Part shown: piece by piece, positions 21,096 to 60,461 of the stretch
How positions within the stretch are numbered: position 1 is the first letter of the stretch
Layout of the letters: every line of letters begins with the position of its first letter
Notes under the pieces: generated by a model
What the model saw: only the letters and a program-made list of their open reading frames with translations
The model's database searches: none
What the model was told of the DNA's origin: nothing
Translations under genes and position numbers: made by a program
Virus record (IMG/VR): IMGVR_UViG_3300035696_000029
Location: 1-64,000 of that record
Source of the DNA: a virus
Taxonomy: Duplodnaviria > Caudoviricetes
DNA length: 64,000 bases
Reading direction: 5' to 3' (one strand)

Positions 21096-23579
21096 CTACA
21101 TACCTTCTCCGGTACCTTCCGGACCTTCATCATTGTTGTCAACTTCATTCAGTTGTAGACCTTCAATCACACGCTTGAGCAAATCAGACTTACTTAGAAT
21201 CAACTCAGACATGCTCTGATACAACGAAGAGAGCAATTCGTTAAACTTGGAGTCATTAACCGTGAACAAACTGTCTTCCAATTTGCGCTTGCAATCTTCA
21301 GGGTCAATGTTCAGGAATTCATAGATAATCTCTACTGGTAAACTACCCTTAGCATAGAGGTTAAACAGCATGTCGTACAAGTCACCCGAATCGCGCAAAG
21401 CCATACGGCTAAAGGAAATCTTCGGATAGATCCAGCGAGGACGACCCCACTTATCTGTTTCGTAGAAACCCTTCTTCATAGCGATGGGCTTGAAGATCAT
21501 TTCTTCGACAAGATCGGTAATCAAATCGCGGAATTGCAAATACGCTGTGTTAAGGATTTCTAATTGAATGCGGTTGCCACTGTAAAGTCCTTCACCAATT
21601 AGGATTTCAGGCGAAAGACCTAGACCAATGGCAAGGTCAGAGTTTGTGTGTTGATACTCACCGTCTAGCGCCAGCAAGCGAGCTTCAGAACCAATCTCAT
21701 TCCACTGTGCCTCATAGTTCACAACGATTGTGAAATCGGGATCGGCCTTAGCTTCATCAATTAATGCGCGCAGGGCAAACACTTCGGACATTGGTACGCC
21801 AGGAGCAACAACCATTGTCTTAGGCGTCATATTGCGAGAAGCAATAGTACTCTGCACCTGACGCAGCTTTTCACGATAGATGCAAGACCGAATTACAGGT
21901 TGGATAATCGAACGACCGTGCAATTCGTAATTTGCTTTCTTACGAGCAAAGTGAACTACATAAGAGCCTTTGAATGGATCCTGATTCAGAGGAATCTTAC
22001 CTTCCTGCTGAATCTTGTCCTTAACTTCGTTAGGAACATTCTCAGCTTGCAAGTATTGTTCCTTCTGAGCTTCGGGTGGTTTGTAGTAGATGGTAGGACC
22101 GTCGGTTAACGTTCCCTCGTTACTCATCTCCATTTGTTCAGGTGGAAGAATCTGGATACGGAAGAATCCTCGATACTTCGGATTTGTAATGTGCGAGAAG
22201 AGTTCTAGCTCTTCTTTACGTTTTTCACGCAACTCCTTCAATTTTTCGAGCAATTGCTTCTTGCGTTCTAAGAGCTTTATGTAATGACGCATCTGCATGA
22301 GTTCACGTTGCGTCTGCATACTGACACCTAATGCTACAGCATCCTTAGCGGCTCCGCCTAAATCAGCTGGAGTAACAGGCATTCCGCCACCACCACCCCC
22401 GCCCATAGGTACAGCCCCTGCTGCACCACCTTCAGGAACCGTGACATCCGCCATACCCTCCGGTCCTAATGGTGCTCCCTCGCCGCCAGCAGCCGGGTCT
22501 GCGCCAGGATCTGCGCCGGGTTCCCCAGGTGCTCCGCCAGGTGCAGCAGGATCCACAGCAGGAGCAGCGCCAGGGACTGGATCTCCTGGGGCAGCTGTAA
22601 CCTGAATGGGATACTCATCTGCATGATTCACACGACCAACAACCTTAGCAACTTTGCGCTGTTTCTTAAGAAGTTCAGCCTTCTTAGCTTTGATTAGACT
22701 GATAACTGAATCTAAAGACTCTTCTGGGTCAAACTTGATACCAGCAGTTTTTAATGTGTTAAGAGTATTGGCAGCTTTGGCAATAAGAGATGCTTTGCGA
22801 GTAGGCTCAATCCAATCCATGATTTGGTCGGCAGTTCCACCCATTGGAGGATTGAATGCAGCTTCGCTTCCAGTTTCGCTATTCTCGCCTGGATCACCCT
22901 CTTCCAATTGTTTCTTAGCAGCGGGACAAGGTTCAACTTTTTCTTTTTCCTCAATGTAATAAAAAGCCTCACCCATCATCCAGTATTCACGAGCACCATC
23001 AATCAAAACAGAGAACAACTTCTTTTCTCGGCATAATCCTTGATAGAAGTCATAGATGTAGTCTTTGTACTCTTCGCTGGAACACTTAGGTTTATCCAAA
23101 GTAACTTTGGACAGAGGAAGTTCCGTGTGCATGTTGATAGCACGGGAAACAATAGGATCCCGGTCGTAAGCTAGACGATAGAAACGAAGTTCTTCAGCAC
23201 GAGATTGAGGCAATTCTAATGCATCAACAGGAAACTCATAGGAGTAATAACCGATGTTTTGGGAGTCAACAATATCGGCTCCGCCCAGCATACCCTCGCC
23301 AAATAGAGCAGCGGTTTTACTTTCTCCACCAAATACTAGCGCATTAGCTGCACCACGGATGTTCCGCATCTTGTTGCGATATGCGGTATCATCTACGATT
23401 TCACCCTTGGTATTGAGTGAAGAATAACGACCTGCCGAGGCATACTCGCGTGTTATTCCTGTATTAGGATCAGGACCTGTTGCAACTTTACGAGGCTTAC
23501 TGTGTCCACCGCCCACACGTGTGTTAGTTCCACGTTCGCGAGTACCGACTCTTTTACCTGTTTCTGGAGTTTCTGCCAT
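21096..23579 (-). CDS. portal protein with large low-complexity insertion
   Basis: YDRDPIVSRAINMHTELP, HFARK...HGRSII portal-like motifs; size 827 aa. Confidence 0.8.
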   Translation of the reverse strand: MAETPETGKRVGTRERGTNTRVGGGHSKPRKVATGPDPNTGITREYASAGRYSSLNTKGEIVDDTAYRNKMRNIRGAANALVFGGESKTAALFGEGMLGGADIVDSQNIGYYSYEFPVDALELPQSRAEELRFYRLAYDRDPIVSRAINMHTELPLSKVTLDKPKCSSEEYKDYIYDFYQGLCREKKLFSVLIDGAREYWMMGEAFYYIEEKEKVEPCPAAKKQLEEGDPGENSETGSEAAFNPPMGGTADQIMDWIEPTRKASLIAKAANTLNTLKTAGIKFDPEESLDSVISLIKAKKAELLKKQRKVAKVVGRVNHADEYPIQVTAAPGDPVPGAAPAVDPAAPGGAPGEPGADPGADPAAGGEGAPLGPEGMADVTVPEGGAAGAVPMGGGGGGGMPVTPADLGGAAKDAVALGVSMQTQRELMQMRHYIKLLERKKQLLEKLKELREKRKEELELFSHITNPKYRGFFRIQILPPEQMEMSNEGTLTDGPTIYYKPPEAQKEQYLQAENVPNEVKDKIQQEGKIPLNQDPFKGSYVVHFARKKANYELHGRSIIQPVIRSCIYREKLRQVQSTIASRNMTPKTMVVAPGVPMSEVFALRALIDEAKADPDFTIVVNYEAQWNEIGSEARLLALDGEYQHTNSDLAIGLGLSPEILIGEGLYSGNRIQLEILNTAYLQFRDLITDLVEEMIFKPIAMKKGFYETDKWGRPRWIYPKISFSRMALRDSGDLYDMLFNLYAKGSLPVEIIYEFLNIDPEDCKRKLEDSLFTVNDSKFNELLSSLYQSMSELILSKSDLLKRVIEGLQLNEVDNNDEGPEGTGEGM

Positions 23580-37464: not shown

Positions 37465-39447
37465 TTAACGTCTTTTTCTATGGTAGAACGGACTAACCAC
37501 TGGAGTACCACCTCCCAGTCCCTGTTGGGTCATAATCCTACGTTGACGATCCAGGATTTTTAGCTCTTGCAAGCTGACTCCATCTAGCCCTAGAATAGGT
37601 GCGGCGGGTTTATTCATTTGCTCTTGCACAACTAGACTCAAACCTGTGGGATCTAGCATCATGCGTCCTTCTTCCTGTAACCAGTTAAGTGCCAAGAATG
37701 CATTACCTTGCGTAGCATCGGACATATCGTCATGAGCATCTTTTTCTAGTGGAGCTTCGACCTTGACCATGTACTTGGTTGTGTACTGCGCTTCAACCAT
37801 TTTCATTTCATGAATGTACTTAGGAACATAAGGAAAACTCACCGATCCCTTATCAATATAGCCCTTTAAAGCAAAGGCCATTCGGGAGTTCATAGCAGGT
37901 GTAAGGTTTATCAACTCTATATTATGAATTTGGTTAATTTCCAGCAATTGAACCAGCATTTGTCCACCAAATTGATCCGTGCCTCCTCGGAAGCAAGGCA
38001 TTATCTGATTTAGCAATTTGAGCCAGTGAACTACATCCTCCAACGGGAGTGTTTTATAATTTATATACTTCTTAGTTTCAACATATTCATTCTGAGGCCA
38101 ACCAGGCCACTCAAAAGCTTCTTTTACCATCATGCGATCAATGTAGTCAAAGATCAATCTGATGCCCGTTGCACCACCCGATTCCAAGTGAGAAATAGCA
38201 ACGGCGGTAGCATCATGATCAAAAGCCAAATCTATCCACCAGAAGTATTGACGACCAATGTTGAGAGGAGTAAAATGTGTGCAATTTAAACGGGCTGTAC
38301 TAGGAATAACTTCTCCCTTTTCATCCCATTTACAATCGACACAAGCTTTCAATTGAGATTCTTTAATGTACGATTCGGACGATTCTAGGAATTCACCACC
38401 AAATTCGGCTTTCCATGTTAAAGAGTTCTTAGAATATTGATCGCGCAATTCCTCTTCAGGAATGCGAGGATTCATCTCTGCGGTAGAAACCCGCATAGTA
38501 AAGGTTTTGCTGTCGGCACCTTCTTCGATAGCCATTTTGTGCAAATCATACATCTTACCAATCTTTTTCCACGGACTGCTGATGGATAAGATAAGACGAT
38601 CGATAACAGTAAAGGGATCATTTGTCTCAGGATCTATCTCAGTGTGAGAGAAGTTTGTAGTGGCGGGAGTAGCCGCGCTGTAAACTTCATCCGAAGACGA
38701 ACCTTTAGCCGAACGGAAATGAGCAAATTCATCAAATGCTAAGAAGACTGATGAAGGTCCACGAACCGCCGTAGTGGTACAAGGATAGGAGGCCACCTTG
38801 ATGGTTGGAGTAATGTCACGCTTATGACGATCTGCTTCGGATACAAACTTCATTTCCGAGTTGGAATTGACTCGGATATAGGGATTGAAGAAAGGACTAC
38901 GGTTAACGTCTTCTTGCAATTTAGAGAATAAGCGGTTAGCTCCATCGTCATCCTGTGCCAAGAAAGTAAAATCAATAGGTGAGCCGGGAATCAATTTCCA
39001 GAATTCCTGTGGCGAACGGATATTCAACAGACGATAGAGAGCATAACCTCCAGCAGCCGATACACACTGACTTTTCCCACCTCGGCGTCCAGCAAATACA
39101 CAAGCTTCATGGTATCCACCTTCAGGTATATCTCGCCAATCATTAACATTACAGCGACCTTGATCGTTTAGAATATGGATAAATTCGGCTTCAGAAACTT
39201 CTCGTTCTAGGACTGTGTGGAATGGGTCCCACATCTGGACCTTTACAGGCTTGTAATCAAAGGGGACACCATAGATAGCTTTAACGATAACTCTCTGAAC
39301 AGGATAAAGCGTAATTCCGAGACCTAGAGGAGACTCAATGAAATCGATAGCATTGAGAATCTCATGGGAATCCTGAATGGTGCTGTGGACAATTTTTCCG
39401 AAAACACTACCAGCAGTTTTTCGGCTAAAACGTTCTTGACGTGGCAT
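37465..39447 (-). CDS. terL: terminase large subunit
   Basis: Walker A GRRGGKS, Walker B FLAFDEFAHF, SISSP coupling motif, RNase H-like IDLAFDHD...HDDMSDA. Confidence 0.95.
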   Translation of the reverse strand: MPRQERFSRKTAGSVFGKIVHSTIQDSHEILNAIDFIESPLGLGITLYPVQRVIVKAIYGVPFDYKPVKVQMWDPFHTVLEREVSEAEFIHILNDQGRCNVNDWRDIPEGGYHEACVFAGRRGGKSQCVSAAGGYALYRLLNIRSPQEFWKLIPGSPIDFTFLAQDDDGANRLFSKLQEDVNRSPFFNPYIRVNSNSEMKFVSEADRHKRDITPTIKVASYPCTTTAVRGPSSVFLAFDEFAHFRSAKGSSSDEVYSAATPATTNFSHTEIDPETNDPFTVIDRLILSISSPWKKIGKMYDLHKMAIEEGADSKTFTMRVSTAEMNPRIPEEELRDQYSKNSLTWKAEFGGEFLESSESYIKESQLKACVDCKWDEKGEVIPSTARLNCTHFTPLNIGRQYFWWIDLAFDHDATAVAISHLESGGATGIRLIFDYIDRMMVKEAFEWPGWPQNEYVETKKYINYKTLPLEDVVHWLKLLNQIMPCFRGGTDQFGGQMLVQLLEINQIHNIELINLTPAMNSRMAFALKGYIDKGSVSFPYVPKYIHEMKMVEAQYTTKYMVKVEAPLEKDAHDDMSDATQGNAFLALNWLQEEGRMMLDPTGLSLVVQEQMNKPAAPILGLDGVSLQELKILDRQRRIMTQQGLGGGTPVVSPFYHRKRR

Positions 39448-40034: not shown

Positions 40035-41888
40035 TTAAGTACTGTACATCTTGTAAGCTGGCCAAGTTTCGAAACGAGTCAAAAAACTGTTGTCAGCGTT
40101 TCGATCTGCCATTGCCCAAGTAAATTGAGCCGAACTCTTATAAGGATCTAAAGCAGGGAATGCTTCTTTGGCAGCTGCAAAATTAGGGAATGATTGAACT
40201 CCCCAACCATCCGGGGTTATTTGACCATTTTTTACACCTACAACTTGAACAGGATAATCAGGTGAAAATCCTACCCATGCTGCTGTTTTACTAGAAGAAC
40301 CAAATCGCGGATCTCGCTTTTTAGGAATATAATCTGAACCTGGTATCGAGCGAGGCACCCAATCTGTAACTGGACGACCCTTAGCTTCATCCCATTTTAA
40401 ACCGTATTGAGCTAAAATTTGTTTAGATTCTTCTACACTGGGACCGCCCATCACACCCAGCATAGGTGCGGGCATCTTTAGATTTTGTATCGCAATCTTT
40501 AATTGAGCATACTCAGGAGTGCCCTTTTCTGGCATTGGCTTTGTAATCTTAGTTGAAGGTGTCCGTCCATGACGACGATCGTATTCTTCTTTACCTTGTT
40601 GAACAGCGTTCTGCATTTCTGGATCAACAGGAGGAGTCAAAGCAGCTTTACTTGTTCGTTTTCCTACAGCATGACTAGCTTTGGTTTGCTGCATCATACG
40701 GAAAACAGGTGAGTCTTTGGGTTCGTTTTCAAAATAAGTCTCCCAATCGCGACGTTTGTTGGGATCGTTCTCGTAGTTACTTTCCCACAATTTGTAGAAT
40801 TCATCTTCAAATGGAGCAAATTGCTCTTGAATAGCGTCATAAGCTTGATTGTAAGCTTCTTCACTCATGTTGCCCCAATTTCCAGAACGCTGATCTTGAA
40901 TATCGCTAACATCGACCCGAGCAGCTTGTGAGAAGATCTTAGCAATATCTTCTCGGCCCTTATCCTTGAAGAATTTTGCTGTACGATGAATCATGCTAGG
41001 CACATTATATTCTTCGCGGTTACGACCCGAATAATTATCCCACAATTGCATAAAACCACCGTTCAGAACTTGAGCAACAACGATTTCCGCATCTTCTTGA
41101 TAAGGATGAACTGCTGCTGCTTTTAGACTTGCTTTCTTAGGAAGAGGATTTTTCTCAGATGCACGTACTTCTTGTACAAGTTCACTGCAATTTATACGGA
41201 GGCCACTCTTTACCAATTCACCAATGATTTGAGGATAGTTTACCGTAACAACATGACCCTTTGATAATCCAATAGGTTCTGCTGATGGACGACCGCCATG
41301 AGTTCCCATAGGCTCAATAGGAAAAGGAACAGGCATACCTTCTTGATAAACAAAGACTAAAGTCCACTCGCGACCAAACATGTTACCATATTGTTTTACG
41401 CAAGAATCAGGCAGTTGTTCTCCACCTGTCCAATTGGCATATTCTTGCTCAGCTTGTTCTAAGTATTGTGATCCTTTGTATTTAAGGACTAGTCTGTAAC
41501 CTTGACCTTGTAAAGCGGAAGCAAATTGTGCCATATCTCCGCTTATTTCAGGAACAACAACAGATTTGGTACTCTTGAGTTTATCTCTAGAAATACTGAA
41601 CGCTGCGTCAGGATCGCCAAGAGGACAAACTCTCCAAAGATTTCCTGTGCTTTCCAAAACTTCTACTGGTTCGCCTTTCCACATGTAAGTCTCGGGAGCT
41701 ACACCTGGTGCAGCAGCGCCATCGGCGGTTTGTAAGAAAGCAGCAAAACGAGAAGGGAGACCAGTACGATCAAATGCTTTTCCTAATTCTAGGCTAGCTT
41801 GATCGCCAGCATTCTTTTGCACGCTTTCAATAGCATCACTGAAATCATCTGCTGTAATATGAAAATCTTCAAGTCGATTCTGGCTCAC
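40035..41888 (-). CDS. modular head-associated protein (617 aa) with KxA-bounded cassettes, one DMP19-like
   Basis: KNA, KKASLKAAA, KAA, KTAA boundaries; VLNGGFMQLWDN...FEDEFY module. Confidence 0.6.
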   Translation of the reverse strand: MSQNRLEDFHITADDFSDAIESVQKNAGDQASLELGKAFDRTGLPSRFAAFLQTADGAAAPGVAPETYMWKGEPVEVLESTGNLWRVCPLGDPDAAFSISRDKLKSTKSVVVPEISGDMAQFASALQGQGYRLVLKYKGSQYLEQAEQEYANWTGGEQLPDSCVKQYGNMFGREWTLVFVYQEGMPVPFPIEPMGTHGGRPSAEPIGLSKGHVVTVNYPQIIGELVKSGLRINCSELVQEVRASEKNPLPKKASLKAAAVHPYQEDAEIVVAQVLNGGFMQLWDNYSGRNREEYNVPSMIHRTAKFFKDKGREDIAKIFSQAARVDVSDIQDQRSGNWGNMSEEAYNQAYDAIQEQFAPFEDEFYKLWESNYENDPNKRRDWETYFENEPKDSPVFRMMQQTKASHAVGKRTSKAALTPPVDPEMQNAVQQGKEEYDRRHGRTPSTKITKPMPEKGTPEYAQLKIAIQNLKMPAPMLGVMGGPSVEESKQILAQYGLKWDEAKGRPVTDWVPRSIPGSDYIPKKRDPRFGSSSKTAAWVGFSPDYPVQVVGVKNGQITPDGWGVQSFPNFAAAKEAFPALDPYKSSAQFTWAMADRNADNSFLTRFETWPAYKMYST

Positions 41889-41890
41889 TG

Positions 41891-44800
41891 TTATGCTCCT
41901 TGAGCTTCACGAGTTCCTACAACGAACTTATACTTCATCACCATAGTGTCCGTATCGATGCTCTCAGCACGGACAAAAACTTCGTACACGAAGCCACCAT
42001 CTTGTTCTTTATTCCAAACAGCCGATTGTGCCCAAGCATCATTAATGGCATTCTGGATTTCTCCATCGTTCAATTTGTCTAACAAATACTTTACACGAGA
42101 AGCCGGATCAACAACCGTGGCATCTACAGGCATAAATCCTGGCTGTGCCTTTTCTACTTGAGCCAGTTGAACTTCACCCATACCGGGAACCTTATCCATC
42201 AATGGGCGAGAAGTAACCTTGAATGCTGAGACTAGAGCGGCTGCAATTTCACCGCAGACTTTCTTTAAGAATTTGGAGAATTGCTTAGGTTCGTCTGATG
42301 CTGCTACTTTCTTACTTACAATAGCTAGAGCCGAACCATCTGGACCCGGAGTATACTGCTGATGAAATTCATCCGTAAACATCATACCACGGATGTCGTT
42401 TTCTTTACGAAGCGGAGCACCCTCTAACACTTCGGGCTTACCATCACGACCTATGCCCGCACCAGCTGCAGGAGAAGTACTCACATAACTAAGTTTGGTG
42501 GTATCAAGAGATTCATCGGCTGCCTCGGCGATGTCGCTATCGTAACCCTGAGAAATGTCGATATCCTCAATCATAGGACTGTTGGTGTCGTTTGGATAGT
42601 CTACGAGTTCATGCTGAAGTTCAGGATAGAATTCGCGCAGAGCTTGTCCTGGGAAGAAGAAATTGAATCCTGCTTTCTTTTCAGCTGGGACTTTGTAGTA
42701 TCCTTTTCCGTTGCACTTTACACAGTTAGGATTATCTTTTCCATTGCAGTAGGAACACTTTTCCCAAGTTTGACCTTTTTCGTCTTTCCACTGATTGCTT
42801 GATTTCTTTTCTTTCTTGAAAAATGGTTCCATATTACGTTCCTTCCGATCCTTTGCAGTTTTAGCTTCTTTCTTTGCAAATTCAACATCGGCTACTGCTT
42901 GAGCATCACTCGTGGTCATGCCCTCGGCTTCAAGTTCGCGCACACGCTTGGCATAACCCGGTGGATCGTTTGGAGCATCTTGCTTCTTATCCCAACATTC
43001 TTGACAATATCCAAAATAAGGAACAGGTCTTTCTCTCCTGCATTCCTTACAGTTTCCTATTGTTGTTTGATGCTCGTAACCGTCAGCTTCTTTTTCTTGA
43101 ATTGCACTAATCATCGGCGTATGTCCATCTATGTCCGTTCCACCATCAGCTCCAGTAGAACCATCATTTGTAATTGGTATCTTTGATGCTGAAGCAATAT
43201 TGATAATCACCTGAGTTCCGGCATTACCTTCAGCTTTCGGGACAGTCACTTCTTCCACTTTACCTACACCAGGAACATGAACATCCGTTTCTACTCCATG
43301 ATCTTTAGCCGCATTTTGAACTTGCTCTAATTCGTTTTCCTTTTCACCAATGCTCTTGCCAACTTCCATCTCCTGTTGAGTCTCAAGAGCCTCGCGCATA
43401 GCATTTACATTTCCGCTTTCGGGTGATTCAAGATTGCCCGGCAGAACTAAAGTTCCTGTTGCTGTCTTTTTAGGAATTGTTCCCAACGTGGAACAAGTAG
43501 TACACTGTTTCTCATTACCACGAATTGCATGCTTAGTTTCACGACGACACTTTGAACAATATGAAGTCTGGAAACCGGAATTCTCATGCTCCTCAGCTGT
43601 CTTAGGATGAGTAGAAGCCCGAGGACATCCGCCATCCTTTGTCAACTCACACTTGCACACAGGGCAGTTGCCACTATCTTTTGCAGTCTTCTTGGAACCC
43701 TTCCGTTCGTACCATTCTGGATTTGTACTCATTAACTTTAGATATTCTACCGCACACTTTCGGCAAGCTGCTCTTAATTGAGCTTTACCGGATTCGGATT
43801 CTATATCAATTGGAACTCGAAGATCCCAAGCGACCGTTCTACCACACAGGGCAGGTGTATCGGCTCCGCCGCCTAACATAACTCCTTTCGGTCCCTTTTC
43901 ACGAATATGCCAAGGAGAAGCACCACCAGCTGTTACCGTTTCACAATAGAAGAATTTCGCATTTGCTAATTTATCTTCTGGTAGTTCGGGAGACTTCTTG
44001 TTCCAAAAGGCTGCTGTCTTTGTTGATCCCGAATGAGCATGCATGTCTTGCAAATGTTTCTTAGCTTTATCCTCTGTTGTATGAGAAGAAAGAATCTTAC
44101 CCGTTTCATGGGAATAGACACACCATTCCGCCAGATTACCATCGGAGTTCCGATGTCCAGGACAATGCTTAACGTAAGCAACTTTTTGCATAGAACCAAA
44201 TTTATCCACTAAACCCACATTTCCGCAATTATTGCACTTTGCTGCTCTTCCACCTTTAGAATTTATCCAAACAGTATTTCTACTCCCACAAACAGGACAA
44301 TTTCCAGGTCCCCCTCCCTTCTTATCGCCAGCAACTTTTTCGTCTTCTAATTGTAATTCTTTCACGCATCCATCGCAAAGAGACGTTATCCGCTCAACAG
44401 GTACTTTTAATTTATGGCAACGAGTGCAGCCCTTTAAAAGTGCCGTTTTAATGGATGCTGTTTGTTTAGATTGAGGAACATGCTCAATTTTAAGATTAGA
44501 AGAGCTAACTGCTCCGCAATTTAAACACTTAACTCCTTCTGGACATGTAGTAAGATCTTGGGCATTACACTCCCGTGCCACTTTTCCTATCTTTTTAGAT
44601 TCATGACCTGTTCCATCACAAGCACGGCAAACTCTACCATTTTGCATTCCTGAACCACCGCAAGCTTCGCAAACTACCCATGCTTTCTTTTCTATTTCAG
44701 AACTTGATTTCTCTTGCAATTCTTTTTCTTTCAGCCAACCAGGAATGTTCGGCTCGCCTTTCCCAACTTCAGCGGGTTTCTTATAAGGCCGCAATTTATC

Positions 44801-47800
44801 CATGTATTTCTCAACCAAAGCATTTACCGCTCCTGCTGGCTTCTGGATGTTAGCGTAGTCTTTTTGAAACTGCTCGGCATCTGGACCACGTAGGACGTAT
44901 TCACGTCCGTTCATAATGACGAGCATGTGGAAACCCTCTCCATCTTCTCCTTCCTCAACGGTAATTGAGGCATTCTTGATGTAAGAAGCTACTTTTTCAC
45001 GAGCAGACGATTCTTTGCGATGATAATGACCACACTTCGGGCAACGTTCTCCGCCAACTCCTTTGTTGCAACCGCATTGGTAACAATCAGCGGTCTTTAC
45101 TGTTGCCTCTTCTTTCTTATCGTCTTCAATTTTCTGCCAGCACTGATGGCAGAGTCCCTCATCATCTAAGCTACGATCCTTACCGCACTCTTTGCACTTT
45201 CCCATCTTGCGGGCAGTCTTTGAAGAAGCATTTTTAGCTAGATCTTCAAAACCAGACATATTAACAAAAGCTTTTTCTGTGAGATAACCATTTTGATCTA
45301 AATAATTTTTCTTCTGAAGTTCATTCAATACGAGAGGATCGGCATTTCCGCCTTCCATTGAATAATCAAAATTACGCCAATCTGTAATTCCATAATCATC
45401 AAGATTTATAGCTATATCGCCAATAAATTGCAATAAATCAGCAGCTTTTGCTGAAAGATCCAGTGCGGATGCAGTCTTAGATTCTTCCTTCTTTCCTTCT
45501 CGTTCTTTCTTTTGTTTTTCCCATTCCTCTTCATTAAAACCTTCTGGTGATCCTCGAGGAGAGCAGAATTTGCATTCACAACCATCTCTGTGGCCGCCAG
45601 CAGCTTTAGACTTTTCTTTTTTGCCTTTTGGGCATGACTTGTTGGCACCCTGAACAGACCATTTTTCTCCACAGTACTCACACTTGCCATCAACAAAAGA
45701 GTGAGGAGTAAACTTAGCAGCGGTCTTAGGTTCTTCCGATTCAGATTTTGATTCTTCAGATTTTGATTCTTCAACTTTCGATTCTTCAGGCTTCGGTTCT
45801 TGGGATTCCTGTTGCTTTGATTCCTGTTGCTTTGGTTCCTCATGCTTGGTAGCCGAATTCTCAAGAGCAGCGGGAACAGCCTGAGCCTGACTATCACTTA
45901 TGGATCTTTCCTTCTCAGGAGTATCCGATTTCGCTGATTCAGGCAAAGCGCCAATCCCACCTCCTGGCTTAGGTTGTTTGTTGTTCTCATCATTAGGCAC
46001 CTCAACCAGAGGTGCTTGACCCATGTCCTGTAAGACTTCATTCAAGATGTCATCATTGCTAGGAACATCGTCAGCAAACTTACGACGATCCCCATACTTC
46101 TTCTGTAACATTGCTTCATGCTTGGCTCGTTTATCCTGACTATGCTGCGAAGCAGCCACAAAACGCTCAATAGTCTCACCTTTCCAAGCAGATGAAGCTT
46201 GAATTTGGTACTCTGCATTGTCATCAACATCGGCAGTAACTTCTTTGTTGATGATGTCGTTCAGAAGACCTATAGAATCGACATACTGAACAGTTGATTC
46301 AGCCATGTTGCGTGGATCGATAAAACCGTCTTCAATTAGACCAGCAGCATCTTCATCCCAAACATCAAGGACTTCTTTATCACAACATTCGTCCATCAAA
46401 CGTATATTGAAACGGTCCCGCTCTTCCCACGTGGTCAAATGAAATTGATGACCTTTGTAGTCGTAGAATTCATTACGATCTTTGGCTTGCTTTATCAAAC
46501 TGCCCTTGACACTTCTGTAACCACCGTTGATTACATTTTCTATAGCACGCAAGTCACGCATGAGATCTTGCTTACCATAAGGAGCCGCTTGAAGCTTTTG
46601 AACAATTGTAGCACGATCATCGCCTGTTGCTTGTTCCAACTTTTGAATTTCTGCTTCTTGCCAACTGGTAAATTGATTTTCTATGGCTTTAAAAGTTGCA
46701 CCAGGTTTTTCCAGTAGACCATCGGTTAAATACTCGGCAGCAGAACTCAAAGTTTGGGATGGAGTTAATTCAGGATATGCTTTACTGAGTTTACCTGTAA
46801 CAAGCATACGATCCCCAACATATTCTACTAGACGGCGGAAACCGTAGCTGCGACGTGGATAGATATTTGTTAAACCCGGTTCTCCTACAATTACATCGGC
46901 ACCGCAAACTTCCTGCCAATGATCTCGTGGACCGCTATTTTCCCACATACCGTCAGAAATCTGACCCTCTAGTTCACAAGTCCACAGCCAAACTTGAGTC
47001 TTATTGGCAAAACGGATCTGCCCATCAGAAACACCAGCAGTCTTAACAGAAATGTCCGACAGATTACTGCTCTCGTGTATGCCGTAACCACCCGGAGCTT
47101 TAGGATCAAAGAAAGACTTTCTTGGACTATCTTTGGTTGCGGTCATTTGATACTCAATGGCTTGTTTCATGCCTTCAACACTATTGAAGCCACTAGGATA
47201 AGTATCCTGGATCCAACCATAATCAACAGGGTTGCCACCACGTTGTTTAATAGCATCCACCATTGCTGGATTATTTTTGAAGAATTTTGGTCCAGTTGTG
47301 TGCCAATGGCAAACTCGCCCACCCTGAAGATGTCCTTCTATTTGCACATCAATACGACGATCTCCTCCAACTTCTTTTTCATAAGTAAAGGGAGCACTGC
47401 GGCTCGTGCGCTTAAAACCCAAGGCACGAAGCTCTCTAAAATAATCTGAATCAGCAGTCTTAACAGCAGCACGCTTTGGAGTTCCGTCGGAATTCAATTC
47501 AATACCGATTGGTTCTTGTTCGCTTTCATGAGCTTTGGCTGCTTCTTCATTGAATTTGACTTCACTAACTTCTTTATTCTTCTTAGCATCGGCAGCTTCG
47601 GTACCTGGTCCAACGTTGGTTGTTCCTGCGGGTACACCATGTGGTGCTTCGCAAGCTTCTTTAGAAGATTTCTTTGTCTTTTGGCATTCAGCACAAAGTT
47701 TTTCTTTTGTTATTTGATGGCATTCATTAGATCCACGATGAGCGGGGCAAGCATGATCAGAGCATTCACAAAAATGATCTTTTTTAGCAGCTAAACGAGG

Positions 47801-48640
47801 AACTTTCTGACTGCCTTCCTCGTGATGTTCTTCTCCGGCTTCTTGAGGAGTCTTAACTCCCAAAGCTTTTTCAACCGCCATACCTAAAGCATCAAAGACA
47901 CTGATTTCCTCAGGAGCTAGAGTTTCCTTAGTAACAGCATCGGCAGTTTTAACAGACAAGAAAATCTTCGGCTTATCCGCGCTACCCAATTTATTAAGAA
48001 CAGGATAAGCTCTCAACGGATTCTGGGACAATTCAGGGAAAGGCAGCTTAGGAGTAATGTCCGTTACATCCAGTTTATCTGTACTGACGTCGGTCATTAG
48101 CGCATCAAATGCACTAGACAACCGTGGATCGTAGTAAGCACCAAACACTAGATGACGCAGCTTGGTACGAAGCTTTTCGTCATCCTTGTCAAATTTAAAT
48201 ACAACATATTCCCGCTTGTTGAACCAGTGAGGAGCAAACAATACAATGGATTCAAACTTGCCATCAGGAGTCTTGAATAGTTTGTCCTTAATGGTTGACA
48301 TATCGGCTTGACTGTACTCATCGAATTCATTGTCGCCAATGCGATGAGTAATCAAATCGGATACTTCCTCACCACCAAATTCCTTTACCAGGCAGCCATA
48401 CAGCAAGGCAATGGGAAATCCTTCGAGTTTATCGGCAATCTTGGCAGGGATAATATAGAGACGACCAATAGCAATGTTTTGACGGAATCCCTTGTAAAAA
48501 ACTTCAAAGGATTGAACATCGCCCGTGCTGCGAGCTTCTTTCTCTCCCGCTTTAGTTGCTTCGACCACTTTTGTCAACAAGCCTTCATTGACTTGAAAGC
48601 TCTGGAATGATTTGAGTGCTACTGTTCCGCTTTGACCCAT
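41891..48640 (-). CDS. giant modular protein (2249 aa), putative protease-processed polyprotein
   Basis: 13 KTA plus further KVA/KKA/KNA/KQA/KFA motifs separating short modules, many with paired CxxC. Confidence 0.75.
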   Translation of the reverse strand: MGQSGTVALKSFQSFQVNEGLLTKVVEATKAGEKEARSTGDVQSFEVFYKGFRQNIAIGRLYIIPAKIADKLEGFPIALLYGCLVKEFGGEEVSDLITHRIGDNEFDEYSQADMSTIKDKLFKTPDGKFESIVLFAPHWFNKREYVVFKFDKDDEKLRTKLRHLVFGAYYDPRLSSAFDALMTDVSTDKLDVTDITPKLPFPELSQNPLRAYPVLNKLGSADKPKIFLSVKTADAVTKETLAPEEISVFDALGMAVEKALGVKTPQEAGEEHHEEGSQKVPRLAAKKDHFCECSDHACPAHRGSNECHQITKEKLCAECQKTKKSSKEACEAPHGVPAGTTNVGPGTEAADAKKNKEVSEVKFNEEAAKAHESEQEPIGIELNSDGTPKRAAVKTADSDYFRELRALGFKRTSRSAPFTYEKEVGGDRRIDVQIEGHLQGGRVCHWHTTGPKFFKNNPAMVDAIKQRGGNPVDYGWIQDTYPSGFNSVEGMKQAIEYQMTATKDSPRKSFFDPKAPGGYGIHESSNLSDISVKTAGVSDGQIRFANKTQVWLWTCELEGQISDGMWENSGPRDHWQEVCGADVIVGEPGLTNIYPRRSYGFRRLVEYVGDRMLVTGKLSKAYPELTPSQTLSSAAEYLTDGLLEKPGATFKAIENQFTSWQEAEIQKLEQATGDDRATIVQKLQAAPYGKQDLMRDLRAIENVINGGYRSVKGSLIKQAKDRNEFYDYKGHQFHLTTWEERDRFNIRLMDECCDKEVLDVWDEDAAGLIEDGFIDPRNMAESTVQYVDSIGLLNDIINKEVTADVDDNAEYQIQASSAWKGETIERFVAASQHSQDKRAKHEAMLQKKYGDRRKFADDVPSNDDILNEVLQDMGQAPLVEVPNDENNKQPKPGGGIGALPESAKSDTPEKERSISDSQAQAVPAALENSATKHEEPKQQESKQQESQEPKPEESKVEESKSEESKSESEEPKTAAKFTPHSFVDGKCEYCGEKWSVQGANKSCPKGKKEKSKAAGGHRDGCECKFCSPRGSPEGFNEEEWEKQKKEREGKKEESKTASALDLSAKAADLLQFIGDIAINLDDYGITDWRNFDYSMEGGNADPLVLNELQKKNYLDQNGYLTEKAFVNMSGFEDLAKNASSKTARKMGKCKECGKDRSLDDEGLCHQCWQKIEDDKKEEATVKTADCYQCGCNKGVGGERCPKCGHYHRKESSAREKVASYIKNASITVEEGEDGEGFHMLVIMNGREYVLRGPDAEQFQKDYANIQKPAGAVNALVEKYMDKLRPYKKPAEVGKGEPNIPGWLKEKELQEKSSSEIEKKAWVVCEACGGSGMQNGRVCRACDGTGHESKKIGKVARECNAQDLTTCPEGVKCLNCGAVSSSNLKIEHVPQSKQTASIKTALLKGCTRCHKLKVPVERITSLCDGCVKELQLEDEKVAGDKKGGGPGNCPVCGSRNTVWINSKGGRAAKCNNCGNVGLVDKFGSMQKVAYVKHCPGHRNSDGNLAEWCVYSHETGKILSSHTTEDKAKKHLQDMHAHSGSTKTAAFWNKKSPELPEDKLANAKFFYCETVTAGGASPWHIREKGPKGVMLGGGADTPALCGRTVAWDLRVPIDIESESGKAQLRAACRKCAVEYLKLMSTNPEWYERKGSKKTAKDSGNCPVCKCELTKDGGCPRASTHPKTAEEHENSGFQTSYCSKCRRETKHAIRGNEKQCTTCSTLGTIPKKTATGTLVLPGNLESPESGNVNAMREALETQQEMEVGKSIGEKENELEQVQNAAKDHGVETDVHVPGVGKVEEVTVPKAEGNAGTQVIINIASASKIPITNDGSTGADGGTDIDGHTPMISAIQEKEADGYEHQTTIGNCKECRRERPVPYFGYCQECWDKKQDAPNDPPGYAKRVRELEAEGMTTSDAQAVADVEFAKKEAKTAKDRKERNMEPFFKKEKKSSNQWKDEKGQTWEKCSYCNGKDNPNCVKCNGKGYYKVPAEKKAGFNFFFPGQALREFYPELQHELVDYPNDTNSPMIEDIDISQGYDSDIAEAADESLDTTKLSYVSTSPAAGAGIGRDGKPEVLEGAPLRKENDIRGMMFTDEFHQQYTPGPDGSALAIVSKKVAASDEPKQFSKFLKKVCGEIAAALVSAFKVTSRPLMDKVPGMGEVQLAQVEKAQPGFMPVDATVVDPASRVKYLLDKLNDGEIQNAINDAWAQSAVWNKEQDGGFVYEVFVRAESIDTDTMVMKYKFVVGTREAQGA

Positions 48641-57050: not shown

Positions 57051-60000
57051 TTATGCAGCAGTTGGAGGTTCAGTACCTTGCGCCACAGGAATAGTAGCCT
57101 TGGTTGGCATCTTGGGCTTACCGCTTTCATCGCGGTCGTTTACCCAACCTTGACCACCGGGGCCAGCATTGGCTTCCTTGGGTTCTTCTTCGACTTCTGT
57201 TTCGTCGACCTTGGGTTCTTCTTCGACTTCTGTTTCGTCGACCTTGGGTTCTTCCTTTTCAACTTCAGGAATATTACCTTCTAATTCTTCTTTGCCTTCA
57301 TCAATGAAAGCTTCTTCCGCTGGAGTTGTAGTCAATTCAATGCCCATATTCTCAGCAAAAGCTTCTAGACCAGCAGCAACGTCATCCAAATTGTGGAATA
57401 GATCATTCACTGCTTCGGCCAATAGCTCGGGATTCTCTGTTGCGATTTGACGGAACTTTGGTCCTAGAGCACGACGTGCAGCAATACGAGTCTTCAAGGA
57501 AGCTGTCCGAGGAGCGTCGACCAAATCCAGATTCTCACGGAAAGCATTTATACGATCAGCCATTTCACCAAAGGCTTGCGTTAATTGATCAAGAGCTTCG
57601 GCTGCTTCAGGAGCTTGCTTCTCAGCAACAAAACGTAGCCGCGCAAACTTTGTGCTCGATGCCTTGCGAGCCTTGATTTTCTCCACTATAGATGCACGCT
57701 TGCTCGCGACGGTGTCTGGGGTCTTTGCTTCTGACATAACTTCCTCCTGTTGAGTGGGTTCCGTAGCGGCGGGAGCTTCCGTGGTAGCGGGAGCAGCCTC
57801 AGCAGGAACCTTGAATCGAACTTCAAACCATGAATCTTTTGGCCATGGATGATAGTTGTCATCAGATCTTGTAATTATAGCATTAGGAACAAGCTTCTTT
57901 ATGGCAGCCGCTAATCTTTCAGCTGTCATACCATGACGATAAAAATACCCACGTTTTACAATATACTCTTGATATTTACCCGACCAACCGATGCTATCAG
58001 CAAGAGCAGCATCTTCAAGCTTTTTGATAATCTCACGGTTCGCACCAGCGAGATGTAATGAAGCACTCTTTAAACTTTGAATGTGCAAACGCTGAAATGG
58101 CAAATCAGGCGGAACAGTCTTCTTCATTGAAAAATCCTCTTTTCCAGAACTAGGTACGTTTTCCTCTCCCGTACCGGGTATAATAGGACCTACTCCCTTT
58201 TCTGGTTCGTTTTCTTCGGCTTGATCTGAAGGCACTCCACGATTGTTAACATTTATTTGAGGATTCTGTTGATCCTGCAAACCTTGTGTACCGCCCAAAC
58301 CTGGTGTAGCAGCTTCTTGCTCAAACCCGCGTTCCTTATCGGAAGTTGGAGTATTTTCATGTGGAAGCCGTCCTGTGTCATTCTCGGAAGTTTGTGGACG
58401 AATGCCGTCATAGAATTCATGACCTATTCCAGCAGTTTTCTGATCTGAACTGACATGGCTAGGAGAGTCGCTATAAGAGCAACCTCGTGCGTGACCTTCT
58501 TCACAAGCAGAACAGATTGATTGACCGCATTCAGGACAATTAAATTGAGGCGCATTACAGCAAGATGAATTAGGGAGCGAAGCAGTTTTCTTTTCTTTCA
58601 TTTCAGGATCGCATTTTTCACAGTAACCTGTGGGACCAACCATAGTTTCTTTACCACATTTAACACACTTACCTGTATGACGGCGGTCCCAAATAGCAAC
58701 TTTGTTCAATAATTCAGCTTCCATACGACATTGAATAACAGAAGCAAATTTAGATGCTTCTTTCCCATAAAATTCTTCAGCAATTACATCTGCATTGCAA
58801 CAATTCGATCCGCCGTATGAATATTCACCTTCAGTCACTGTACGGCCACAATTGCTGCATACTGCGCCAGGATGTTTCTTCATTTCTTCTTCATGTGTGC
58901 CAGGTTTTGCAGTTGTTATTGCTTTTTTCTTTACAGGATGAAACTTAACATCTGATTTAGCTTTACTTACTGCGCCAGTTCCACCACAATGATGACAGTT
59001 TGCAGCTTCTTCATCAGACCAATCTTCGCAAACAGGGCAGGGATATTCATCTTTAGCTTGCTTTTCTATAGGTTCGGTTGGTTGTTGAATATTTTTGTCA
59101 ACAGTGTCGGGAGATACAACTTCAGCTTTAGCTTGAGAAATATCTTCACTGATATCATCAGCTGTTTTGGAAAGTTGCTTCTCTAATTCTTTAATCTTAC
59201 GTTCTGCTTTTTCTCGTTGACTAGGACGCTTGGCTGTATCACGTTCTTTCTTCCAAGAATCCAATTGACGCTGAATATCTTCATTTGCAATTTTAGAAAT
59301 TGCCAAATTTTTTCCCTCATCCGTTTTAGCTACTTTTAATGAAGATGCTTTTGCTGGCGCAGCTTTAGCCGGGGTTGCAGCGTCGGGCAGGTTATCTACA
59401 ACAGCCGCTAGTGGGCTGCCCTCAAGCTTATCTGCATTTTCTTCTACATATTGCTTCACGAGCGGAGCAAATTTCTGATAGTAGGACTTCATTGAGTCAA
59501 AACCAAGACCTTTAGGATGCTTATCATCTTTAGTCTGTTTTGCCCAATCGGGATAGATGTCTGAAATTTTAGGAATCGAATGATCGTTTACAATCCAATC
59601 CACAATAATATCCCAAATCTTCAAGAAATTTTGAGCAGTCTCAGAACGCTGACTCTTATCTAGCCACTCAGCAAATCCTCTACGAAATGCCTCCATATCG
59701 GCTTTAAATTCGGCTAGTTCCTGACCAGTTGGAGCTACAGCATGTTCTTCTGTATCAAGAACATTGTACTCTTCATGCTCTTTATCTCCTACGTTCGGGC
59801 CACCTTCTGCAGGTTGATACATAGGATCTGTTAAGGGATCTTGCATCTTATCGATGAATTGATTAGCTTCCTGTTTGCGACCCAAGAAAGTAGACAGCAA
59901 GAATTGTGTGACTTGTTTTTCTAAAGGCAATTGTTGCACAGCAGGAGGGAATCGTTTGATTGCTTCAGCAAAGCCGCCCTTACCTTTATTGGGATCTAAG

Positions 60001-60461
60001 ACGCGACGATCACCTAGATTAGTGATAATAATTTGATGAATGGCTTCGTCTTTGATTTCGTCGTCACCCTTCAAACTAGGATAGAATTTCTTCTGGAACC
60101 ACTTTGCCCAGTTCCAACTTTCATCCACAGGAAGACCTGCTGCCCGGATGTAGGATTTGACATATTCATCCCAATCCTCATTGTAAGCCAACACGTTGCG
60201 TAACCATGCGGCTATCTTTGCAGCATAGCGATTCACGGGATAAAAGTTAGCGGGAGTCTGAACGGGCTTCCCCTGAAGATCTGCCAACTTAAAGACATAT
60301 CCGTCAGGATCGACGACCTTGGCCCGAACACGGAATTGTGTACCGTCAACATTGGTAACAATGGATCCGGTCTCGAGCAAGTGAGCAACCCGGCTGAGAT
60401 CCGCTGTATGCTTTTGAGGCTCTGTTTTTACAGTGCCCAAAAGTGAGGCGGTCAACTTCAT
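57051..60461 (-). CDS. large modular protein (1136 aa), second putative KxA polyprotein
   Basis: KTA x3, KVA x2, KIA x2, KQA, KEA, KRA boundaries; four Cys-rich modules; AAGGAG RBS. Confidence 0.7.
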   Translation of the reverse strand: MKLTASLLGTVKTEPQKHTADLSRVAHLLETGSIVTNVDGTQFRVRAKVVDPDGYVFKLADLQGKPVQTPANFYPVNRYAAKIAAWLRNVLAYNEDWDEYVKSYIRAAGLPVDESWNWAKWFQKKFYPSLKGDDEIKDEAIHQIIITNLGDRRVLDPNKGKGGFAEAIKRFPPAVQQLPLEKQVTQFLLSTFLGRKQEANQFIDKMQDPLTDPMYQPAEGGPNVGDKEHEEYNVLDTEEHAVAPTGQELAEFKADMEAFRRGFAEWLDKSQRSETAQNFLKIWDIIVDWIVNDHSIPKISDIYPDWAKQTKDDKHPKGLGFDSMKSYYQKFAPLVKQYVEENADKLEGSPLAAVVDNLPDAATPAKAAPAKASSLKVAKTDEGKNLAISKIANEDIQRQLDSWKKERDTAKRPSQREKAERKIKELEKQLSKTADDISEDISQAKAEVVSPDTVDKNIQQPTEPIEKQAKDEYPCPVCEDWSDEEAANCHHCGGTGAVSKAKSDVKFHPVKKKAITTAKPGTHEEEMKKHPGAVCSNCGRTVTEGEYSYGGSNCCNADVIAEEFYGKEASKFASVIQCRMEAELLNKVAIWDRRHTGKCVKCGKETMVGPTGYCEKCDPEMKEKKTASLPNSSCCNAPQFNCPECGQSICSACEEGHARGCSYSDSPSHVSSDQKTAGIGHEFYDGIRPQTSENDTGRLPHENTPTSDKERGFEQEAATPGLGGTQGLQDQQNPQINVNNRGVPSDQAEENEPEKGVGPIIPGTGEENVPSSGKEDFSMKKTVPPDLPFQRLHIQSLKSASLHLAGANREIIKKLEDAALADSIGWSGKYQEYIVKRGYFYRHGMTAERLAAAIKKLVPNAIITRSDDNYHPWPKDSWFEVRFKVPAEAAPATTEAPAATEPTQQEEVMSEAKTPDTVASKRASIVEKIKARKASSTKFARLRFVAEKQAPEAAEALDQLTQAFGEMADRINAFRENLDLVDAPRTASLKTRIAARRALGPKFRQIATENPELLAEAVNDLFHNLDDVAAGLEAFAENMGIELTTTPAEEAFIDEGKEELEGNIPEVEKEEPKVDETEVEEEPKVDETEVEEEPKEANAGPGGQGWVNDRDESGKPKMPTKATIPVAQGTEPPTAA
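57176..57254. repeat. 33-bp in-frame tandem repeat, 2.4 copies
   Basis: Exact copies encoding PKVDETEVEEE. Confidence 0.9.

Follow-up and report, generated by a model that had tools for sequence, protein, structure and literature searches.

Internal proteins of phage T4 carry an N-terminal capsid-targeting sequence and are cut by the protease gp21 at L/I-x-E, and phage P1 encodes DarB, a protein of more than 2000 amino acids (aa) with N6-adenine methyltransferase and DExH helicase domains. Outside the phages, herpesvirus assemblin sites have the form V/L/I-x-A, with the cut before S, and viral polyproteins are single products that are cut into many functional proteins. T4 gp21 and gp245 of phage SPN3US each act at one three-residue motif, at which the capsid protein, the portal, internal or ejected proteins and the proteases themselves are cut; in giant phages, the propeptides measure 20-24 aa or, in the long form, 111-254 aa, and certain proteins contain several sites (PMC10052503). 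The T4 proteins IPI, IPII, IPIII and Alt are packed into the head, cut by gp21 and injected with the DNA, where IPI serves as an anti-restriction factor (PMC5512222). Polyvalent proteins (Iyer et al., 2017) are very large and multi-domain, are encoded beside portal and terminase genes, are predicted to be packaged and injected, differ widely in domain content and have been proposed to undergo processing into parts (PMC5512222). Here we analyze a 64,000-nt window of the genome of a soil jumbo phage related to Tunturi_5 (IMG/VR record IMGVR_UViG_3300035696_000029, positions 1 to 64,000; Duplodnaviria, Caudoviricetes) and one open reading frame within it, P0001, which with a probability of roughly 0.65 encodes a head-internal polyprotein that would be cut by the prohead protease at a K-x-A motif. 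The window belongs to an 83.8-kb fragment estimated to be 26% complete. Its closest named relative is Tunturiibacter phage Tunturi_5, a cultured 309-kb myovirus of an Acidobacteriota host.

The P0001 frame runs without interruption over 6.75 kb, and its commonest tripeptide is KTA. The motif occurs 13 times (residues 231, 394, 533, 972, 1055, 1141, 1182, 1398, 1541, 1651, 1680, 1725 and 1927), compared with 0.95 expected from composition, and none of 20,000 shuffles reached this number, the shuffle maximum being 6. All K-x-A together number 39, compared with 18.7 +/- 3.9 in shuffles, and 39 was reached in none of 5000 trials. An initial annotation of the window, made from the letters and their open reading frames, had reported 13 exact KTA where about one was predicted, five KVA, and further KKA, KNA, KQA, KFA, KEA and KAA; our recount and listing agree with it in each respect. 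Two explanations at the level of DNA were considered and rejected. A DNA-level repeat or recombination site is inconsistent with the nine different 9-mers, differing by synonymous codon changes, that encode the 13 KTA, and a recent internal duplication is inconsistent with the lack of self-matches in P0001 at E < 1e-3. Thus, the motif is kept at the protein level, and selection acts on it in protein rather than in DNA.

Enrichment of KTA is confined to proteins of the head module. Nine such proteins together hold 29 KTA where about 3.6 are expected, and the rest of the contig, some 19,000 residues, holds three. One of these three is located at residue 10 of the large terminase subunit, where it may be fortuitous or may belong to a short N-terminal propeptide.

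The head module of the same genome contains a prohead protease, 62% identical to gp331 of Tunturi_5. The protease gene is followed directly by a scaffold-like gene and, further on, by the capsid gene, an order shared with Tunturi_5. The initial annotation had stated, correctly, that the protease and major capsid genes are not in the window, and had proposed a search for the former; both are found just beyond it on the same contig, the protease by its match to phrog_18299. Within the protease, KTA followed by S occurs at residues 55-57 and again at 287-289, with the matched core lying between the two sites, an arrangement that matches the known self-cleavage of T4 gp21 and SPN3US gp245 (PMC10052503). 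Across 12 aligned relatives, K27, A29 and A31 never change and A57, A289 and S290 reach at least 90% conservation, while the middle residue of the sites can be T, Q, V, A, I, F or M. The protease core also contains invariant Cys/His clusters (C194, C197, C208/H210 and C233/H235), which from the sequence look like a zinc site inserted into the enzyme, together with invariant H73, H127 and S184.

The portal and capsid proteins carry the motif as well. In the portal, the column that holds the first site is KTA, KIA, KVA, KSA, KKA or KTG in 17 of 17 relatives that could be anchored on a core motif, although its flanks differ among them; KTG is limited to three near-identical loci. The capsid protein reads L-L-K-T-A-G-G with KTA at residues 19-21, and Tunturi_5 has KSA at the same place. 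K-x-A is about twofold over expectation in the scaffold-like protein encoded downstream of the protease and in its relatives. These scaffold-like proteins (contig 69474-71546 and relatives) end in a conserved tail, A-L-F/L-G-x-D-E-F, with K-x-A sites before it; the tail may be a capsid- or portal-binding peptide that is released or exposed by cleavage. The motif is thus shared with canonical substrates of prohead proteases, at positions held in 12-25 relatives. The proposal that K-x-A plus a small residue is a prohead protease site appears well supported by these comparisons, and we are more confident of it than of the polyprotein reading as a whole. We implicate the protease because the motif lies both in the enzyme itself and in the expected head substrates, and by analogy with the cuts after E in A-x-E and between A and S in assemblin sites, cleavage probably falls after the Ala.

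An enzyme other than the prohead protease, from the host or a second peptidase of the phage, might instead cut at K-x-A, or the cut might come only once the protein has been injected. Processing after injection has been proposed for polyvalent proteins (PMC5512222), and the K-x-A specificity of the prohead protease is a prediction. We nevertheless regard this explanation as improbable, since Pfam finds no peptidase domain in the polyprotein and the occurrence of the motif in the protease and in its expected substrates points to the prohead enzyme.

The same signal is found across the family of related proteins. KTA occurs there in 307 independent contexts, whereas each of the five other permutations of these residues occurs in 48-95; KQA (151 vs 21-67) and KKA (275 vs 67-123) are likewise enriched, and KSA is not. 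Residues before the sites are small and polar (A or S from -3 to -1), and K is found at -5; S, A, G or D occupies +1, and W, Y and C are over-represented in the ten residues after it. Such a context fits a linker that leads into a folded domain. Pairwise homology blocks begin or end on the motif at 1.7-2 times the rate seen for random positions, a modest enrichment, with block starts peaking exactly on K and block ends exactly on A.

P0001 could instead be a giant virion protein that remains uncut and acts whole, for instance as an internal core, ejection or DNA-organizing protein whose zinc ribbons are strung like beads, with K-T-A as a linker or docking motif. Cleavage is deduced here from sequence, giant packaged proteins can remain unprocessed, as does the virion RNA polymerase of phage N4 (PMC5512222), and the small array units are mostly basic, with isoelectric points of 8-9.6, and could bind DNA. 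Two observations argue against an uncut protein, which we consider unlikely: the motif sits where self-cleavage or propeptide removal would be expected in the protease, portal and capsid proteins, and it precedes domain starts in an asymmetric, substrate-like context.

Across more than 200 relatives, the conserved parts of the polyprotein are only the N domain, two mid segments (residues 234-396 and 826-974) and the C domain (Table 1). The N domain is common to 99 proteins of 416-1971 aa (49-72% identity), many of them on contigs of 200-460 kb, and matches 143 subjects in a family BLAST search; the C domain is found in 126 representative clusters and is placed C-terminally in almost all. Unit 234-396 matches 46 family subjects (consensus motifs VPR, TNVGPGT and PIGI..D..G.PRR), and segment 826-974 matches 48 (consensus K-F-A-D...D-D-I...G-x-A-P-x-V, followed by an acidic E/S/K-rich linker). 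Accordingly, the depth of family matches along P0001 exceeds 100 in the N and C domains, is 34-134 in unit 234-396 and 30-68 in segment 826-974, and is 0-22 elsewhere, with steps that fall at KTA 394, KTA 533 and KQA 717.

Comparison with the cultured relative gives the same picture. Only residues 1-253 and 1985-2244 of P0001 align with the 1080-aa gp350 of Tunturi_5 (47% identity), and the mid segment 826-974 aligns weakly with gp350 residues 726-775. The gene order of two small genes, polyprotein and large terminase (gp348-349-350-TerL) is shared. Because the end domains and the gene order agree, we regard P0001 as the orthologue of gp350.

Both end domains occur in one fused protein in 33 family members, Tunturi_5 included, and in three complete genomes of relatives the N domain is encoded by a single long gene (1483-1548 aa). 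The arrays differ in relatives with capsid proteins 88-90% identical to the one here; their N-domain genes of about 1480-1550 aa carry other cassettes and end in an acidic tail, G-D-L-A-D-x-V. This tail is present in 37 of the 99 N-domain proteins and may be a second targeting or docking signal. In the one such locus examined, gene A is followed by a gene B with further cassettes and the C domain. Two-gene loci are found in many relatives (P0005-P0103); there gene A comprises the N domain, an array and the acidic tail, gene B comprises an array and the C domain, and the two overlap by 11 nt. These split loci, and the origin of the contig as an incomplete metagenomic fragment, could suggest that P0001 is an artefact of chimeric assembly or several small genes run together. 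The unbroken frame, the fused gene in a cultured phage, the 33 proteins with both ends and the long N-domain genes in complete genomes make an artefact very improbable.

Between the conserved parts, the array varies in content, number and order among relatives. Only 2-14 family subjects match the units of array I, and each unit of array II matches 0-22, at other positions and in other order. The units of array II are delimited by KVA and KKA sites in addition to KTA, and 11 of the 15 have at least four Cys; eight are minimal, zinc-ribbon-like units of 29-61 aa with four Cys. From residue 1144 to 1990, successive units bounded by K-x-A contain 4, 5, 0, 4, 4, 4, 4, 2, 4, 4, 4, 4 and 4 Cys. Changes of order can be followed unit by unit: in P0053 and P0018, the counterparts of units 9-10 come before those of units 4-6; in P0007, units 17-18 come before unit 4; and in P0056, unit 15 comes before unit 9. 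K-x-A again borders the homologous unit in several of these proteins. In these comparisons, the core genes are stable while the cassettes turn over quickly.

These observations bear on three claims of the initial annotation. It had placed most K-x-A at boundaries between units, in agreement with the run of four-Cys units that the motif delimits. It had described globular ends flanking a variable array, and the ends indeed align with gp350 while match depth falls inside the array. It had also suggested aligning orthologues, on the expectation that the ends would be conserved and the cassettes would differ; we find the ends kept, the cassettes different in number, identity and order, and the proteins not collinear.

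Some cassettes have counterparts outside the polyproteins. Unit 397-535 is 72% identical to P0224, the 167-aa product of a free-standing gene that lies amid small genes with an intergenic gap on each side, and for unit 536-719 the matches are gp666 of Bacillus phage G (123 aa) and phrog_24869. At least two cassettes thus have stand-alone homologues, as the initial annotation had surmised. For the widely shared unit 1489-1543, no free-standing protein of similar length was found with a search tool that needs shared words, a result that does not speak for its absence.

The same organization extends to neighboring proteins, and here too the earlier suggestion of a common grammar in the portal and in the 1136-aa and 617-aa proteins is borne out. 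Units 94-271, 261-403 and 526-616 of the 617-aa protein match internal parts of N- or C-domain proteins of other phages (40-55% identity), and units of the 617-, 1136- and 1294-aa proteins are found inside such polyproteins at 37-62% identity, so that cassettes are common to the family. Unit 432-470 of the 1136-aa protein recurs in many of them. The cassette at 261-403 of the 617-aa protein is DMP19-like, scoring above the Pfam cut-off for this DNA-mimic family (PF14300; E 1.6e-7, 32.3 bits vs a cut-off of 25), and the same unit is also found in P0125, a C-domain polyprotein of another phage. The 1294-aa protein is a further multi-cassette protein punctuated by K-x-A, with a ParB-like stretch (phrog_3264, E 5e-4). 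An ART/Tpt1-like identity was tried for its unit after KTA 891, which matched only Tox-ART-HYD1, below the cut-off (E 0.12, 13.4 bits); this unit recurs at 54% identity in a C-domain polyprotein of another phage. The antitoxin toxin-binding domain Xre_MbcA_ParS_C is present in the polyprotein of one relative. The few recognizable cassettes of the shared pool, DMP19 and Xre_MbcA_ParS_C, would fit interference with host defence.

We propose that the precursor would enter the prohead, probably through its conserved N- and/or C-terminal domains, and that the head maturation protease of the phage would then act on exposed linkers that read K-x-[A/S]-[S/A]-[S/A]-K-[T>Q,K,V]-A, with S, A, G or D as the next residue. 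About 15-20 separate small proteins would result, comprising zinc-ribbon-like units and other small domains. The N domain is a candidate prohead-targeting propeptide, and the targeting role proposed for the end domains follows the analogy with the T4 capsid-targeting sequence and the long SPN3US propeptides. AlphaFold2 models built on small alignments predict an alpha/beta core for the N domain (residues 17-165, fairly confident) and a helix-plus-sheet core for the C domain (about residues 2115-2249, predicted local distance difference test score about 90). The pieces may then be retained in the head and reach the host together with the DNA, as cargo that acts early and in part against host defence, a step to which we give slightly less than even odds.

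It is a more tentative suggestion, and one we would not bet on, that K-x-A polyproteins constitute an evolvable cargo magazine, in which a small gene recombined between two sites would gain capsid loading and delivery at once, its product arriving ready-made as infection starts. At the level of protein, such a magazine would parallel the cassette systems of integrons or polymorphic toxins. With the same reserve, the clade of soil jumbo phages might in this way keep a shared, fast-shuffling pool of pre-made counter-defence and takeover proteins, such as zinc ribbons, a DNA mimic and antitoxin-like units, spread over several head genes. The initial annotation had put forward a magazine of this kind. 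Its elements of K-x-A as a protease site, variable cassettes, free-standing homologues and a shared grammar are supported by the sequence comparisons, but its "dozens of effectors" overstates the case, as about 20 units can be delimited and none in this reading frame has a recognized function.

Several points weigh against the polyprotein reading. Pfam finds nothing in whole P0001 at E <= 0.1, and no cassette has a recognized function; searches of seven single cassettes against Pfam and PHROGs gave only phrog_24869 and sub-threshold noise. The N and C domains have no recognizable fold: Foldseek against the PDB gave no match at E <= 0.001, the best VIA-align Z scores (7.8 for the N domain, to YkuJ over 78 residues, and 4.3 for the C domain) are within the noise range of that tool, and ESM Atlas searches yielded no usable lead. 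The protease matches no PDB sequence, as a single sequence or as a 12-sequence profile, and none of the Pfam protease models. Conservation of the capsid KTA is uninformative, as the entire N terminus is conserved, and the enrichment of homology-block ends at the motif is, as noted, modest. A K-x-A protease specificity was not found in the literature searched, and the Tunturi paper reports no virion mass spectrometry. Finally, the multiple sites in long SPN3US propeptides serve degradation rather than release, and most of the fragments are lost from the head (PMC10052503).

This last point favors the principal rival explanation, in which P0001 is a sacrificial internal scaffold or giant propeptide, cut at K-x-A into debris that leaves the capsid to make room for DNA. 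The K-x-A-rich scaffold-like protein of this phage and the acidic low-complexity linkers within P0001 are consistent with such a role. In contrast to short peptides, however, the units look like folded domains (29-202 aa, many of them with four Cys), and their fast turnover and exchange with free-standing genes and with a DMP19- and antitoxin-like pool would not be expected of filler. We therefore consider a sacrificial scaffold unlikely, if less so than the other alternatives.

Table 1. Coordinates of the polyprotein, its parts and the other K-x-A or head-module proteins. Positions are those of the window, or of the 83.8-kb contig where so marked.
Feature	Position	Strand	Details
Polyprotein P0001	41891..48640	-	2249 aa, unbroken open frame
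N domain, residues 1-233	47942..48640	-	Ends in family-wide KTA followed by D, codons 47942-47950
Second conserved unit, residues 234-396	47453..47941	-	Ends in KTA, 47453-47461
Variable array I	46166..47452	-	Units 397-535, 536-719, 720-825; delimited by KTA 533 (47036-47044) and KQA 717
Conserved mid segment, residues 826-974	45719..46165	-	Ends in KTA 972, 45719-45727
Variable array II, residues 975-1990	42671..45718	-	15 units, 29-202 aa
Array II KTA codons	45470-45478, 45212-45220, 45089-45097, 44441-44449, 44012-44020	-	
Array II KTA codons, remainder	43682-43690, 43595-43603, 43460-43468, 42854-42862	-	
C domain, residues 1991-2249	41894..42670	-	KKA followed by G directly before
617-aa protein	40035..41888	-	Starts 3 nt after polyprotein stop; KTA at residue 534
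DMP19-like cassette, residues 261-403 of 617-aa protein	40680..41108	-	PF14300
Terminase large subunit	37465..39447	-	phrog_17415, E 3.7e-9; two genes downstream of polyprotein
Portal	21096..23579	-	phrog_16240, E 1e-17
Portal KTA followed by A, residues 88-90	23310-23318	-	Start of conserved core
Portal second KTA, residues 277-279	22743-22751	-	
1136-aa protein	57051..60461	-	K-x-A multi-cassette; KTA at 432, 625, 675; KQA sites; Cys modules
Capsid protein, 319 aa	contig 64273-65232		Found via Tunturi_5 annotation and gene order; beyond window
Head maturation protease	contig 71512-72468	-	phrog_18299, E 1.8e-13; beyond window
1294-aa protein	contig 72435-76319	-	Directly upstream of protease; KTA at 139, 586, 891, 1275

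The large terminase gene lies two genes downstream of the polyprotein, which therefore sits in the packaging and head module. The polyprotein gene has no megablast match among 50,697 phage records, and the Pfam capsid models Gp23 and Phage_capsid match neither the contig nor Tunturi_5. The region between the scaffold-like and capsid genes (contig 65990-69356, minus strand) encodes glycosyltransferases (Pfam Glycos_transf_2 and Galactosyl_T) and a protein of which one stretch resembles phosphoheptose isomerase. In Tunturi_5, the scaffold-like and capsid genes are only about 0.8 kb apart.

If the proposal is correct, K-x-A plus a small residue would be a new specificity for a phage maturation protease, and mature virion proteins could be predicted from the motif throughout a large clade of soil jumbo phages, those of Acidobacteriota among them, for which hardly any annotation exists. 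Many different small proteins would be loaded into the capsid from one gene by means of one targeting domain, and the variable cassettes would form a catalogue of candidate early-acting or anti-defence proteins, most of them without a known family. The idea is directly testable, as the relative Tunturi_5 is cultured and its host, Tunturiibacter psychrotolerans X4BP1, is known.

How far does this locus resemble the systems described above? Like P1 DarB, P0001 is of similar size and is presumed to be packaged in the head, and Phold, an automatic structure-based annotator, labels gp350 "DarB-like". The antirestriction function implied by this label is unsupported: Pfam finds no methyltransferase or helicase at E <= 0.1, and the models of the end domains match no such fold, although absence of a fold alone is weak evidence. 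With its 2249 aa, about 20 units and a position two genes upstream of the large terminase, P0001 also resembles the polyvalent proteins. However, none of their hallmark domains (MuF, zincin-like peptidase, ART, DarB-type methylase/helicase, ArdC or primase) is found in P0001 by Pfam at E <= 0.1, and in thirty family members Pfam recognizes only DUF7249, Xre_MbcA_ParS_C, the DnaJ zinc domain and Anti-TRAP, which do not make up a polyvalent signature. Because these hallmarks are absent, we classify P0001 neither as a polyvalent protein nor as DarB. In contrast to polyvalent proteins, its units are mostly tiny and zinc-ribbon-like, and processing would proceed through a repeated prohead-protease site rather than an embedded peptidase.

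The T4 internal proteins differ in another way, with one protein and one site per gene, whereas many units share one precursor here. P0001 lacks the layout of a T4-type internal protein, in that its first conserved site, KTA 231, comes after a 233-aa domain and is followed by many further domains. The T4 targeting sequence is short, while the targeting part here would be that entire domain; the motif differs as well, and no homology to the T4 proteins was detected. To our knowledge, polyproteins are not an established route of capsid loading in tailed phages, and no capsid-cargo polyprotein is described for them in the literature searched, a 2026 jumbo-phage review included. The resemblance to assemblin, with Ala at P1 and Ser or another small residue at P1' as suggested by the near-invariant A289-S290 of the protease, is an analogy in the cut after Ala only, as searches of PDB sequences gave no match that would indicate kinship.

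The giant phages phiKZ, 201phi2-1 and SPN3US (protease gp175/gp245, S/A/G-X-E) likewise use one three-residue motif for many substrates, but the motif here is K-x-A plus a small residue instead of A-x-E. No similarity to their head proteins was found, and PHROGs matched only one cassette. Known giant-phage substrates mostly lose a single N-terminal propeptide, in contrast to at least 13 sites and about 20 unrelated small domains in one chain of P0001. Processing of multiple substrates by a prohead protease, injected internal proteins and the concept of large polyvalent injected proteins are all already established. What differs here, from sequence comparison, is the motif, which would have K at P3 and A at P1, together with how many sites one chain carries and the roughly 20 unrelated mini-domains with their fast turnover.

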